Virus record (IMG/VR): IMGVR_UViG_3300025018_000073
Location: 1-36,441 of that record
Strand: one strand, 5' to 3'
Length of the DNA: 36,441 nt
DNA from: a virus
Lineage: Duplodnaviria; Caudoviricetes
Positions within the stretch are counted from its first letter, which is position 1; the number at the start of each line of letters is the position of its first letter. Below are positions 6,600 through 21,480 of the stretch, piece by piece. The notes beneath the pieces were generated by a model. The model saw only the letters and a list, made by a program, of their open reading frames with translations, searched no databases and had not been told where the DNA came from. Both the position numbers and the translations under genes were made by a program.

Positions 6600-6649
6600 A
6601 TATATTTTATTTATTATTTATTAAAAATTTTTTCATTTTTTTAAAAAAT

Positions 6650-6780
6650 GTAAAGTAAAGTAAAGTAAAGTAAAGTAAAGTAAAGTAAAGTAAAGTAAAG
6701 TAAAGTAAAGTAAAGTGTACTCGCCTATACAAAGCCTTTCAAAGCCTATATATAGCCTATCTAGTAAGCTAATTTAAGCC
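6650..6780. repeat. (GTAAA)13 pentanucleotide array followed by ~10-bp-phased AGCCT-type repeats, non-coding
   Basis: GTAAA x13 at 6650-6714, then cgcctatacaaagcctttcaaagcctatatatagcctatc; AT-rich flanks. Confidence 0.9.
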
Positions 6781-15316: not shown

Positions 15317-16284
15317 CTAAAATGCAATATCTGATATATCATCCTTTATATATTGGAAAAAATGTTCAATTACTGAAATTGTCCATCAATTTCAACACAT
15401 TTTAATAATTTGGTTATCACTAACATCAAATTTATACCAATCTGGCACTGCTTGTAATTTCATATATTCTCATGATGTAAGTTTTCTTATTTTTAAATCC
15501 TCCATAATTACTCACATATTTAATGATGTTGTAAGAGTTCAAGATTTTCATTTTTTCACTCTCCCTCTTTTTGTTTTACTTTCTGGGAAATCTAAAATCA
15601 CACTATCTCACCACCCCCCTCAATCCATCATTGTTTTGTTGCATTTCTAATATGTAATACATTTTTTTCTTGATCGACTTTAAAAACAAGTTTATTATAT
15701 AAAACATCATCAATATAATATTTTGATCCTGGATCTTTAATTAAAATATCTTTTAATAATATATTTTTATTTTTTGGTTGATTTACTTTTATTTGTTTAT
15801 ATGTTCAATCATTTTGTAATTTTCAAAACCAATACAATCTATCTCTATTTTATGCTGTCAAAAGTCATGAATTTATTTTTATTGGTTGTATTCACAAATA
15901 ATCTGATATTACATTTTGCCACTCTTTTTTCATTACAACATTTTCAAGAAAAAAATATTTTGGTTTTGTTTCTTTTAATAATCTTACATATTCAAAAAAT
16001 AAAGCACTTCTTGGATCATTAAAATTTAATCATTTTCATGATCTTGAAAATCATTGACATGGTGATCATCAAATAAGTATATCAAAATCACAAAATCAAT
16101 TACTATAATCTAATCATTTTATATCTCAAAGATGTATCATTTCTGGAAAATTTGTTTTTGCAACATATATTGCATGTTTATCAATTTCACTTGCAAAATA
16201 TTCATCAACCTTTAATTGAATATTTTTAAGTGCTATTTGGCCACAACTCATACCATCAAATAATGATAAAACTTTTAATCACAT
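15317..16284 (-). pseudogene. C5 DNA cytosine methyltransferase with a nonsense codon and a frameshift
   Basis: VLSLFDGMSCG, ASEID, IGGSPCQGFS, LENV, C-terminal GNGWT; in-frame TAA at 15850-15852 in TA*NRDRLYW; frame change at a G6 tract (15614-15619). Confidence 0.85.
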
Positions 16285-17496: not shown

Positions 17497-17533
17497 AAAA
17501 AAAACTTGATTTATTTTATTTAATTTATATAAT
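17497..17533 (+). promoter_or_regulatory. Plus-strand promoter AAAAAAAAC-TTGATT-16bp-TATAAT
   Basis: -35 at 17506-17511, -10 at 17528-17533; same architecture as the minus-strand early promoters; no protein gene downstream. Confidence 0.75.
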
Positions 17534-17539
17534 TATTTC

Positions 17540-17611
17540 GCATGGTATTGTATAATAAATCATTATACAATTTTAAAAAAGAGGTGTGGTTTATCCAACA
17601 CCCCTTTTTTT
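17540..17611 (+). ncRNA. Putative trans-acting antisense small RNA, ~72 nt
   Basis: Bounded by a promoter and a hairpin+U7; 5' CAUGGUAUUGUAUAAUAAAU is complementary to several early start-codon regions; internal hairpin 17547-17571. Confidence 0.6.
17575..17611. terminator. Bidirectional intrinsic terminator
   Basis: A6-gaggtgtgg-tttat-ccaacacccc-T7; ends the minus-strand replication operon and could end the plus-strand RNA. Confidence 0.75.
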
Positions 17612-17749
17612 ATTGTTTATTTTTTTTATATATCAAATTGAATAAATATACTCCAATTGTTTTTCTGTGAAAGGATGATCAATATAATATAAATCATCAT
17701 CTGAAAACCCCTCATCACTTTTTATTTGCTTTTGCATGGCTTTAAAGTG

Positions 17750-18259
17750 TTATTTAATTTTTAATTTTAAATATTGATTTAATTTTTCAATTGTTGTCTC
17801 AAGTCAAAAATCTTTCTCTCTTTTTTCCAACTCTTTCAAAACACCATCTCTATATATTAAAAAGTTTTTTTTCCTGCCATCAAGTGTTTGATCCATTGCT
17901 TTTTTTATTTTTTCTGCAATTTTTTCTCTCCTTTTTTCATCATCATGCAATAATTTATAATAAAGATCATTATTTGTTTTTTTAAGATCCTCTTTTTCTG
18001 TGTGTGACATTTCACAAAATCTCTTGTCTTTTTTTGGTTGCTCAAGTGATAAATATCTTGTTTTTCATATTTTATCCTCTATTGCTGAAAATTTTATAAA
18101 TCTCCTATATTTTTCACTATTAAATCAATCCTCTCATTTCATTTTTAATTGACTTTCTATTATTAAAAAATCCTCATATTTTAAATCAATTTCAAAAATT
18201 TCTCATTTCCATGTTTTTAAAATTGTAATCTCACTTTTTAAATTGTTGTTATTCATCAT
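17750..18259 (-). CDS. Hypothetical protein coupled to the replication initiator, 169 aa
   Basis: Start overlaps the initiator 3' end; extends track ORF 17804-18010. Confidence 0.65.
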
Positions 18260-18969
18260 GATTTATTATTATTAAAATAATTTGATCATCATTTTTTGCT
18301 CCATTTTTTTTCATTTGAAATAAAAGTCCCAAATCTTCTTGTAACTTCAAATGTTGTCTCAAGATCATATTTAATTTTTGTCATTGATTTATTTGGCTCT
18401 GTCCAATATTTTACAAAAGTTTTTCATAATACATCAATATCTTGATCTGATAATCAATGTTCTTTTTTTATATAATCTCTATTTATATTTTTTGTAAGTT
18501 TTATAAATTCATTTGTTTTTTCAATTATAATTTCTGATCAAGTTTCTTGATCTGTTTGGTTATGTAAAGTTAAGTAAGGTATAGTTAAGTTAAGTAAAGT
18601 AAAGTAAGGTAGGCTTTCAAACCCTTTCAAAGCCTTTATTATTGGCTCTGGTATACTGTTAATAATTCTTTGCATCCCTTTTATTACATTTGGATTATTT
18701 GCTTGATTTTTTGCAAAGTTTTTTAATATAATCCAATCTTTTTCTTTTAAAATTTTTCAATCTTTTTCAAATCTTGTCAAAATCTTATTAACCATGTCTT
18801 TGTCAAATCATGTCTCATAAGCAATCCTTTTTATTTTTATTTCATAAGCACCTGCAATATTACAAAGTGGATTTGATAATAAATATAAAAATATAAGTTT
18901 CTCACTTGGATCAAGATCCTCAATATATGGATCTGTCCAAAAACTGTCATTTATTATTCTTTGTGTCAT
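18238..18969 (-). CDS. Phage replication initiator / replisome organizer, 243 aa
   Basis: RIINDSFWTDPYIEDLDPSEKLIFLYLLSNPLCNIAGAY..IAYETG; internal pentamer repeats; C-terminal FVKYWTEPN..TFEVTRR. Confidence 0.85.
18563..18636. repeat. Degenerate GTAAA/GTTAA pentamer repeats plus two CTTTCAAA within the initiator gene; candidate origin
   Basis: gtaaagttaagtaaggtatagttaagttaagtaaagtaaagtaaggtaggctttcaaaccctttcaaagcct; lambdoid-type origins lie inside the initiator gene. Confidence 0.6.
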
Positions 18970-18995
18970 GGTATTGTACAATAAATAATTAAAAT

Positions 18996-19124
18996 AAAAA
19001 AAACCAAACTAATGTTGTGAGTATAGTTTGGTTTTACACCTGTCAAATTTTTACTTTGGCAAGTTACATATTGAGTTTTGATCACAACTTCAAAACTCAA
19101 CATGCAACCTCCGAAAAGGTGCAT
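18996..19124 (-). ncRNA. Structured leader/attenuator RNA upstream of the replication initiator (four hairpins, last is terminator-like)
   Basis: Stems at 19102-19124 (UUCG loop), 19071-19100, 19041-19061 and 19000-19035 followed by a U tract. Confidence 0.7.
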
Positions 19125-19129
19125 ATATA

Positions 19130-19163
19130 AGTATATATAATATATAAATAAATCAAGTTTTTT
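19130..19163 (-). promoter_or_regulatory. Early-type promoter AAAAAAC-TTGATT-15bp-TATACT
   Basis: -35 at 19156-19151, -10 at 19135-19130; predicted start coincides with the base of the first hairpin. Confidence 0.6.
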
Positions 19164-20466
19164 ATAAATCAACAACATCATCCTCTGTATATTCTGCTGT
19201 TTCTTTTGGTTTAAACTGTGCAATCCACTCTTGATATACTGTGATACCTCAATCAAATGATTGATCAAATATATTTGGCATAAAATCATCTTTTTCAACC
19301 AATAATTGATATAATCTTTTTATTGTTTGTTTGTAAAATATCAACCACATATCAAGTAAATATGATTGATCATCAAAATCAATAATATACTCATATACAA
19401 CTGGTTTCAATTCAATTACTCATTTTTCCAAAAGTGCATCTTGCATCATTGCATTTGTCATGTATTTTCAACCATTTCATTTTGCCCAATCAATATCATT
19501 TTTATCACACTCTGATCTCAACTCTGGTTGATACATTGTTGGTGGTTTTGGATCTGATGGTTGTATCTCAATAATCAATGCCTTTTTTGGCCTCTTTTCA
19601 AAGGCTGTAAAGCATCAAAAGAAATATGTTGATCATTGCATGTCATACTCTGGTTTTATTGTCTCATCTGATGATAATAAGCCCTTAAATTTCCAATCCA
19701 CAATGATCAAATCTAAATCTTCATCCTCAAATACTGCATCAACAATAAATTTTACTGGTAAATCAAGCACAACTCAATCAAGATCAAAAATATCCAAAGT
19801 TTGGTTGTATTCTGCTGATATAAGTTTCCAATTTTTAACTTTTGGATAAACAAATGCAAACCAATTTTTTAATCACATTTCAATCCCCTCTAATATTTTT
19901 TCAATTGATCATGTTGTACCATATTTTATAAAATCATCAAGTTTCTCATCTTTTTTCTTATGTTTTGAAATTGCTTTTTTTATTTTTTCTCATATTTCCT
20001 CAATTTCCTTGTCTTTTATTTGCATTTCTGTAAATACATTTAGTTTATCTTTTTCATCTTGTACTTTTTTATAATCATTTACGAGTTTAAAAATGTCATC
20101 ATATCATCAAAATGCAATCATTGTTTTTGAGTTCCAAAAATCATCTGGTTTTTTATTTTTTGTAATATAATCATCTTTTGCATATTGTTGAGCATTTTTG
20201 ATCACTGCACTCATTGTTGTTTCTGGATCTTTTGCATATAGTTTCCTCATTTGCTCATCCTGTAAAAAATGTTCAACTCAAAAATGACATGATTTTCAAA
20301 TTATTGTTGCAACATAAACTCAATTATCAAACTCATAATTGATATAATGCTTTAAAAATAATGCCTCATTATTCCTCAACTCTTTCATTGAGGAAAATGA
20401 TAAATATTGTATTCATGCACCCATTAAACTGTCTCTGGTATTATTTGCCAATATATTATTTATCAT
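19162..20466 (-). CDS. PD-(D/E)XK nuclease (recombination exonuclease partner of Bet), 434 aa
   Basis: YLSFSS..IGKSCH..LPVKFIVDAV..IIVDWKFK..QGSTY; adjacent to RecT/Bet. Confidence 0.8.
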
Positions 20467-20496
20467 GGTACTGTATTTAAAAATTAAAATATTATT

Positions 20497-21480
20497 TTAG
20501 TAAACTATTTTTACAATTGCTTGATCAATTTTTGCAATAAATTCATCTGCTTGAGCAACTGTCATCTCTTTTGCACTTTCAACATTAAAATATTTATTCA
20601 TTGTTGCTTTTCTTTTTCTCTCACTTTCCTCAAAATTCCATCCACTTTTTTCTGCAAATTCTTTCCATTTTATTTGTACTTGTTTTATTTTATTCGATGG
20701 TAAAGCATCCTTTACTCAATTTAAAACTGTATATGGTGTAATATTATCTGGCATTGCATCAATAATCTCATCAAGTGGATTTTTTGCATCAAGTTCCTCA
20801 TCTGTAATATCAACAACAATATCCACTTTTTTTGCTGGTGTTTTTTTAATTTTTGGCTTTTTTTCAATATCTTCTGGTGTATCATCTTGATTATCTTGAT
20901 CAACTTGTCAATCAATGATGTCTTTTTCATCTCTGTTTGCAATTTCCTCTGCAAGATATGGTAATGATCAAAGTTCGCTTGGAAAACATAATCTAAAACC
21001 TTGTCAAATAGCAACTTTTTTGATCATAAATTTTCCTTTTGTATCCCAAATTTTATTTAATTTTCTTACTTTTGTGAATTTATCAAAAAAATATCATGCA
21101 AACTCATCAAAATCAATCTCCCAAACAAAAGGATTTGTCCAATCTTTTCTGTGTATTGTTACTCTTGCACCTGCAATTGATCAATCATCATTTTTAATTA
21201 CTTCACAACTCCAACCATTTAAAAGTCATGTTGCATTTGCTTTATCAATATAAACTTGGTATCAAGTAATTATTGAAAAATTATCACCATATCAAACTGC
21301 ATAAATTTCTCTTTTAAATGGATTTAATCCATTTGCTTTTGCAATTTGTAAAAACAAATTTTGTTGTTTTTCATTGATTGGATCTTTTAATCAAAAAAGA
21401 TACTCTTTCAATGTTTGCTCATCAACTGTCACAATTGCAACTTGTTGATCCTTACTCTTTGCCAATTCTTTTCCTGTCAT
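20497..21480 (-). CDS. bet: RecT/Bet single-strand annealing recombinase, 327 aa
   Basis: FLQIAKANGLNPFKREIYAV..IITGYQVYIDKA..GARVTIHRKDW..W..FMIKKVAI.QGFRLCFP. Confidence 0.9.

Follow-up and report, generated by a model that had tools for sequence, protein, structure and literature searches.

What controls the replication initiator of this phage is the question raised by the short interval in front of its gene. The window, by which we mean the whole stretch of DNA analyzed (36,441 bases), is a complete virus record with direct terminal repeats, and all of its long genes lie on the minus strand. Its long frames are open only when TGA is read as glycine, as in NCBI table 25, which points to a Gracilibacteria/Absconditabacteria host; an initiator homolog (L106) lies inside a Gracilibacteria assembly. 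To our knowledge, hardly any work has addressed how phages of CPR bacteria regulate their genes. A reading of the letters alone (here, the sequence-only reading) had proposed that a transcript starting near position 19124 folds into four hairpins, two of them with complementary loops, and ends in an intrinsic terminator before the initiator gene, as either an attenuator/antiterminator or a structured RNA absent from the catalogues. Here we follow up this proposal computationally, in the window and in related leaders.

Results

A predicted leader RNA with a stable fold precedes the initiator gene

The leader lies between an exonuclease-like gene and the initiator gene (Table 1), whose product gave no match in Pfam. 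A search for tyrosine and serine integrases, which detected the controls in 14 and 12 of 14 genomes, gave none in the window phage or in the two syntenic relatives described below. Elsewhere in the window, about 14 tandem GTAAA units occur in an intergenic gap at 6640-6716, with a degenerate version inside the initiator gene at 18545-18621; these repeats are possible origin iterons. A AAAGACATTG(A/T)A motif, a probable late promoter, is repeated on the minus strand upstream of structural genes (near 2340, 3040, 6320, 25975, 31905, and 34505) and is present in one of the relatives, L410, too. A C5 cytosine methyltransferase gene (15317-16284, minus strand) appears as two ORFs, of 144 and 104 aa, separated by 218 nt.

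Table 1. Positions of the leader parts, the flanking genes, and the predicted sRNA in the window
Feature	Position	Strand	Details
Predicted trans-acting sRNA	17540..17612	+	Promoter-like site 17506-17533, two hairpins, U tract
Replication initiator/replisome organizer	18238..18969	-	243 aa in code 25; PHROG 6251 (E 3e-17), PHROG 1701 (E 5e-16)
Predicted sRNA target	18967..18986	-	20 contiguous pairs (one G-U) over the initiator AUG
U8 tract, predicted termination site	18996..19003	-	After 8-bp core stem
P4, terminator-like hairpin	19000..19035	-	12-nt loop: UACU 19023-19020 plus CACAAC 19019-19014
Internal promoter-like TTGACA-15-TATACT	19020..19046	-	Perfect -35; this phage only, by eye absent in L410 and G001
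P0, closing helix	19035..19123	-	19123-19117 with 19041-19035; mutually exclusive with P1, abuts P4; in minimum-energy and centroid folds
P3, weak hairpin	19040..19062	-	Unpaired in centroid fold
P2, 20-bp hairpin	19062..19109	-	8-nt loop 19089-19082 shows pairing strand GUUGUG, 19088-19083
P1, UUCG-capped hairpin	19103..19123	-	Early alternative fold (growing-chain folds)
Predicted promoter (putative activity)	19130..19156	-	-35 TTGATT 19156-19151, 15-nt spacer, -10 TATACT 19135-19130; +1 near 19124
Exonuclease-like gene, upstream of leader	19162..20466	-	PHROG 1218 (E 9e-7); position conserved in both syntenic relatives

The 129-nt strand from 19124 to 18996 folds to −48.2 kcal/mol (z = −7.73), a stability equaled by none of 200 shuffled sequences, and the opposite strand reaches only −37.1 kcal/mol. 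The proposed start near 19124 is consistent with the promoter-like TTGATT-15-TATACT at 19156-19130. Two of the four proposed hairpins, P2 and P4, are present, although P2, which carries the GUUGUGA loop as claimed, has 20 bp (19109-19062) rather than 11 bp; of the other two, P1 is absent from the minimum-energy fold, and P3 is weak and lies outside the centroid fold. The four-hairpin fold (−31.1 kcal/mol) falls 4 kcal/mol short of the fold in which 19123-19117 pairs with 19041-19035 (−35.1 kcal/mol). P1 is nevertheless the first hairpin to form as the chain grows and is outcompeted later by the closing helix P0 together with the longer P2. It is probably the counterpart of an optional 5′ hairpin with a YCGR loop that occurs in 13 of the 39 leaders of the family described below, a raw count taken without a chance control. 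P2 by itself reaches −25.5 kcal/mol (z = −8.4), compared with −16.8 kcal/mol on the opposite strand, and its G-U pairs favor the sense strand.

P4 consists of an 8-bp core with three G-C pairs (−7.3 kcal/mol), followed by U8, and its 12-nt loop includes a YUNR motif within UACU (19023-19020). It thus has the makings of an intrinsic terminator, a stable hairpin directly before 7 to 8 U residues, with a loop longer than usual; a simple terminator scan, limited to loops of 3 to 8 nt, did not call it. The initiator ATG (18969) lies 26 nt beyond the U tract and 30 nt beyond the end of P4. RNA from the internal promoter-like site would start inside P4 without the 5′ arm of the terminator, and could in this way bypass it. 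The view that the structured RNA is missing from catalogues held up: Rfam searches gave no match for the leader or the syntenic loci, and none at the gathering threshold for the window, where only generic hairpins appeared below threshold.

The loop coordinates given by the sequence-only reading proved exact. The P2 loop GUUGUGA (19088-19082) is complementary over 7 nt to the P4 loop UCACAAC (19020-19014), a match that random 8-nt and 12-nt loops of the same composition reached in 0.15% of 200,000 trials. Since pairing in the family begins after UACU, the seventh pair (A-U) probably has no counterpart there, which leaves a probable homologous kiss of 6 bp. Nested pairing of these strands yields −22.0 kcal/mol against −48.2 kcal/mol (here and below, energy comparisons of alternative folds leave out pseudoknot loop costs), and because it is 26 kcal/mol worse, only a loop-loop kiss (free duplex, −8.9 kcal/mol) is possible in the window, without strand invasion.

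Two syntenic phages carry leaders of the same layout

Leaders at the same position, before initiators of other families, were found in two relatives, L410 (RecT 67%) and G001 (exonuclease 59%), the latter leader being read across the terminal repeat of its record. Each has a promoter-like site of the same type and position as that of the window, a last hairpin followed by a U tract, a multibranch insert whose closing helix abuts that hairpin, and, further upstream, a strand that can pair with the hairpin loop. L410 combines the canonical loop UACU-CGCAAGGC with U5 and a 7-bp partner some 75 nt upstream (terminator, −33.0 kcal/mol; antiterminator, −33.2 kcal/mol), and G001 combines a noncanonical loop with an 8-bp partner and U6 (terminator, −35.0 kcal/mol; antiterminator, −39.8 kcal/mol). 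In both leaders the upstream strand copies the 5′ arm of the terminator, and its pairing extends into the 3′ arm, so that it can displace the 5′ arm. An antiterminator working by strand invasion is therefore available to both relatives, whereas the window copy is restricted to loop-loop contact. A U-tailed hairpin whose loop pairs upstream is kept in all three syntenic phages with different letters, a small sample that supports a shared attenuation logic and forms the main support for attenuation in this lineage. With its canonical loop and distant pairing strand, L410 is also a bridge to the more compact leaders described next.

A covarying leader family with a UACU-YRY-AA loop

Initiator homologs were gathered from three collections, yielding 118 distinct upstream regions, that of the window included. 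In 11 of the other 117, there is a hairpin whose loop begins with [U/C][A/U]CU-YRY-AA and is complementary to a UU-RYR strand upstream of it. With a strict detector, the element was reported in 7/118 initiator upstream regions versus 11/3126 background windows, and a looser detector in 9/118 versus 14/1484; the remaining members were recognized by eye. Viral contigs were also scanned, independently of any protein, with two patterns that left two letters free per side (chance match, 1 in 4). In this blind test, at a preset hairpin cutoff of −9 kcal/mol or better with at least 9 enclosing pairs, complementary triplets were present in 31 of 39 distinct hits with such a hairpin, compared with 14 of 52 hits lacking one (Fisher P = 7e-7). 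A stricter cutoff of −14 kcal/mol, picked after seeing the data, left 29 hits, all of which match (29/29) and which form 25 clusters at 70% stem identity. We define the family by 39 members, namely, these 29 pattern-scan leaders and 10 protein-found leaders, with L102 excluded for its divergent loop and L074 for its weak detector hit. The leader of L102 (1390-1490, plus strand) has a loop, CUAGCGG, that is complementary both to an upstream hairpin loop and to a segment just before the ATG.

In the alignment of 34 members, each of the 272 pseudoknot cells is paired, and both sides vary in 6 of 8 pairs; because the scan patterns fixed the first five pseudoknot columns in the scan hits, only the last two columns are a free test. 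The upper stem covaries as well (8 of 9 pairs vary on both sides in 14 members of equal length), and family stems contain 65 G-U pairs versus 11 A-C mismatches, which favors the sense strand. The expectation, set beforehand, that loop complementarity would be conserved with covariation in related leaders was thus borne out in the 39 members. These data leave little room for GTTGTGA/TCACAAC as DNA half-sites of a dimeric protein, or as a chance match, with the hairpins unrelated to it. Half-sites of a dimer would covary too, and the window copy has no close homolog; such a reading is nonetheless hardly credible, given that one copy always sits in a hairpin loop right after UACU, that the stems covary with a G-U bias to one strand, that non-hairpin matches stay at chance level, and that six triplets are used.

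Letters left free by the patterns are conserved too (an A in 27/29 and a G in 27/29), with six different triplets in use, and 6 of 69 alignment columns are invariant. Such conserved letters would fit an orphan riboswitch in which a small molecule binds at the junction of the ACU bridge, the U-G closing pair, and the conserved A that precedes the pairing strand, stabilizing the pseudoknot and turning the gene on. That one core would serve two expression platforms with near-balanced energies, that the topology resembles the guanidine-IV riboswitch as presented in the available part of its description (PMC11611296), and that unrelated proteins lie downstream all speak for this reading. We nevertheless consider it quite unlikely, as the six invariant columns are all explicable by a U-turn plus pairing and G001 achieves the same with another loop sequence. 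Searches with the full family model (R1) also gave no match in five entries or in two 151-genome samples of the host lineage; they were run without a positive control, and absence does not follow from them. A tRNA-sensing role for the anticodon-like loop CU-NNN-AA was considered and rejected, because the six triplets would correspond to four different amino acids (Val, Ala, Met, and Ile) in front of one and the same gene class.

An ORF follows 28 of the 29 pattern-found members: 15 belong to initiator/helicase-loader PHROGs of several unrelated families, 7 encode HNH endonucleases, 1 is of an unknown family, and 5 have no match. With such unrelated proteins downstream, it is unlikely that the product regulates its own synthesis. 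Judging from homolog context, the hosts of family members would be CPR bacteria. Rfam gave no match at E 0.05 for 20 member loci, and model R1 applied to 100 loci returned no new member beyond the known ones.

Likely output of the compact members

In the compact family, the pairing strand lies 14 to 31 nt upstream of the loop, the loop tail is R-G-C-G, and the stem starts 0 to 1 nt past the pairing strand in 36 of 39 members. On geometric grounds, this spacing would make a cis pseudoknot impossible with the full stem, so that the lower part must open; the median cost of opening the lowest 7 nt is 10.1 kcal/mol compared with 9.6 kcal/mol for the duplex, loop costs ignored. The element stands directly upstream of a same-orientation gene in 38/39 members, its stem ends 7 to 18 nt before the start codon in 34/38, and an exact TATAAT occurs within 60 nt upstream in 23/39. 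A U-run of at least 5 follows the stem in only 3 of 39 compact members, for which reason translational control is likely there. A terminator was accordingly rejected as a family-wide feature, and the attenuator/antiterminator reading stands for the syntenic phages without extending to the family.

The pseudoknot could be real and yet act post-transcriptionally everywhere, on ribosome access or as a shield against 5′-end decay, the U tract being an AU-rich spacer. This would suit the compact leaders well: their stems end close to the start codon, 36/39 have no U-run of 5, and the nearby TATAAT places the pairing strand near the 5′ end. We judge it rather unlikely in view of the U5 to U8 that follow the hairpin in the three syntenic phages, the 30 nt between the window hairpin and the AUG, and the upstream strand that, in two of these phages, copies the 5′ arm of the terminator and can displace it.

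The tight spacing of strand and stem also bears on whether the RNA works in trans. The terminated 129-nt RNA would then be the product, the loop of one compact RNA would bind the 5′ strand of a second molecule and so act as a concentration (copy-number) sensor, and the initiator would be expressed by read-through or from the internal promoter-like site. The promoter-to-terminator arrangement and TTGACA-15-TATACT are in keeping with this, and a strand that abuts the stem base in 36/39 members would bar full-stem pairing in cis and allow head-to-tail stacking. However, the position directly upstream of a same-orientation gene in 38/39 makes the proposal very doubtful, the shortest spacer of 14 nt is about what a cis pseudoknot would need, and long-linker variants permit pairing in cis.

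Finally, a cis-encoded antisense RNA may target the leader, much like in the IncI/IncB or pIP501 replicons, the upstream strand mimicking the antisense loop. Its loop has the YUNR motif, which is described as a pairing enhancer in antisense recognition loops (PMC4485353, available part), it precedes an initiator, and the three phages lack a tyrosine/serine integrase. We regard this as highly improbable: no opposite-strand promoter of this phage's type occurs from 18730 to 21459, and no leader peptide was found among the ATG-started ORFs of at least 40 aa. A conserved antisense promoter was likewise rejected for the family, opposite-strand TATAAT being scattered and present in 13/39 members versus 9/50 control loci (P = 0.14). 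Sequence patterns thus gave no cis-antisense signal over the P4 loop, neither as an opposite-strand promoter at the locus nor as positional enrichment in the family.

Other initiator leaders were encountered during this survey. Eight unrelated ones (L043, L067, L088, L138, L150, L173, L182, and L190) have an upstream strand complementary over 7 to 12 nt to the loop of the last hairpin, and from these the loop-pairing design seems to have arisen many times. A recurring multibranch leader in L046, L128, L129, L132, and L136 has (G)UUACUCC at its 3′ end, and another, with GGGGGAUG...GUGAUCUC, recurs in the Verrucomicrobia-type loci L107-L116 and L174-L198.

The window copy as a probable long-range variant

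P4 carries the first nine family loop letters in the family pairing register (UACU-CAC-AA), an upstream strand pairs with it (GUUGUG/CACAAC, 6 bp versus 8 bp in compact members), and the element lies between the −10 element and the start of the initiator gene. Its spacing departs from that of the family, the strand being located 47 nt before the stem, inside P2, and its loop tail is C-A-U-U. Model R1 did not match the window copy at E values up to 10, and a 13-nt loop matrix placed it outside the top 25 sites of the window. A hairpin-only model (R2), built without the window or L410, ranked P4 first in 69.8 kb (16.2 bits, E 0.034), followed by the L410 hairpin (E 0.067) and an unrelated site (14.4 bits). 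Together, these comparisons lend moderate support to family membership and suggest that the window copy is probably a long-range variant rather than a typical member.

The closest initiator homologs do not have the element: a leader is missing from L124 (88%), and that of L043 (79%) folds differently. No copy of the exact long-range version was found in 37 loci scanned. Another scan for the long-range version gave 74 loci with 57 distinct matches, 17 of which passed a loose hairpin filter; only L279, L288, and L254 were plausible by eye. None of these fell below E 6 with R2, and they are not counted as members. The leader had no blastn match to named phages, and neither this search nor the pattern scans nor a scan for the sRNA pattern (below) found a close homolog with the same P2 hairpin. 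One chance pattern match (L323 and L324) is a CRISPR-like array in a viral contig, with a 77-nt period (59 and 31 matches) whose repeat contains GTTGTGA and TACTCACAAC.

A predicted sRNA as a possible second layer

The 5′ end of the predicted sRNA is complementary to five early ACCAUG start regions (18969, 17352, 20466, 21480, and 21786). The initiator start pairs best of 55 starts (−27.2 kcal/mol; next, −18.5 kcal/mol), in agreement with the earlier claim that the leader is stacked on the strongest sRNA target. Homologs of the sRNA are present in L410 and G001, and a scan with its pattern returned 13 loci, namely, G001, L410 plus a duplicate, and 10 apparent chance matches. Each initiator start pairs best with the sRNA of its own phage. 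The converse, a preference of every sRNA for the initiator of its own phage, does not hold: the L410 sRNA scores −13.6 kcal/mol with its own initiator versus −16.2 and −17.7 kcal/mol with other starts. As the site lies downstream of the U tract, the sRNA would act on read-through RNA only, which suggests a second layer in series with the hairpin switch rather than its trigger.

Discussion

The reading we favor, with a probability of roughly 0.5, is that the stretch is a cis-acting initiator leader working as a transcription attenuator, whose U-tailed last hairpin would stop most transcripts by default. P4 and U8 would terminate most RNAs; in the remainder, CACAAC would leave the polymerase and pair with the P2 loop before the 3′ arm is made, and this kiss would hinder completion of the terminator and allow read-through, as for guanidine-IV. 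Read-through transcripts would next encounter the sRNA of the phage, and it would mask the initiator AUG. In the compact family, the pseudoknot would open the lower stem and free the region 7 to 18 nt before the start codon, the same switch with a translational output. As to the trigger, our first guess is co-transcriptional folding kinetics with a fixed low leak, and our second a ligand or protein. What counts against attenuation in the window is that the 20-bp P2 hairpin locks the upstream strand, so that the terminator cannot be invaded, and a 6-bp kiss could as well stabilize P4 as hinder it. The core of the terminator is also weak, with only 8 bp, three of them G-C, under a 12-nt loop.

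Attenuation before an initiator gene has precedents. In pIP501 and pT181, an antisense RNA drives the choice between terminator and antiterminator; here, in contrast, no cis-antisense RNA was found, and the competing strand lies inside the leader. In the guanidine-IV riboswitch, a kissing-loop contact competes with completion of an intrinsic terminator, and stem elongation uses up the linker and disfavors the kiss sterically, according to the available part of the source (PMC11611296). The leader would resemble it in the contest of kiss and terminator, and the compact family resembles it in the geometry of steric loss. It differs in having no Rfam match and no known ligand, in preceding phage replication and HNH genes instead of exporters, and in that most members have no terminator. 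The repZ leader of the IncI-alpha plasmid ColIb-P9 and the rep leader of IncB plasmid pMU720, as far as the accessible text of PMC4705826 goes, place the loop upstream and its partner beside the Shine-Dalgarno sequence, with a leader peptide as trigger and Inc antisense RNA as block. Common to those systems and ours are a loop-to-strand pseudoknot in an initiator leader that would switch expression on and a U-turn-type loop. In our element, however, the loop is downstream and the partner upstream of it, there is no antisense promoter signal, and no leader ORF was found, none of the ATG-started ORFs of at least 40 aa (the range of the ORF list) beginning in the leader. The leader of T4 gene 32, a phage gene of DNA metabolism, likewise has a pseudoknot at the 5′ end of the mRNA, and this pseudoknot nucleates binding of the gene's own product (PMC10690425, in the part available); the proteins downstream of the UACU-YRY-AA family, in contrast, are unrelated to each other.

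We found no description of the element in the literature covered, which did not extend to the alignments of PMC10690425 or the supplement of PMC5737381; the accessible part of 10.64898/2026.09.22.753630 contains nothing relevant to it. A table of Fremin 2023, in the available part of that source (PMC10690425), lists candidates upstream of HNH, NUMOD4, and DUF4373 genes, and the UACU-YRY-AA family may therefore be among them, although six of its loop motifs had no match in the part of the supplementary files that was available.

The comparative sequence data indicate that UACU-YRY-AA is a real and new RNA family, of a known mechanistic kind and with a function that is a prediction. Its core of about 55 nt is strongly covarying and uncatalogued, keeps its position when the initiator gene downstream is exchanged for another, and is found before HNH endonucleases too; it is also amenable to in vitro work without culturing host or phage. 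A bolder and fairly improbable reading would make it a riboswitch-like class of CPR-bacteria phages, in which one pseudoknot core with a terminator or ribosome-loading output licenses replication and homing endonucleases on a host signal and, in the window, is stacked on the AUG-covering sRNA as an all-RNA replication brake of an integrase-free phage. If the pseudoknot gates expression, one RNA core would be reused with termination and translation outputs, and the discovery of a ligand would make it a phage riboswitch for DNA replication. The leader is likely an RNA switch, one that would limit the output of the initiator protein.
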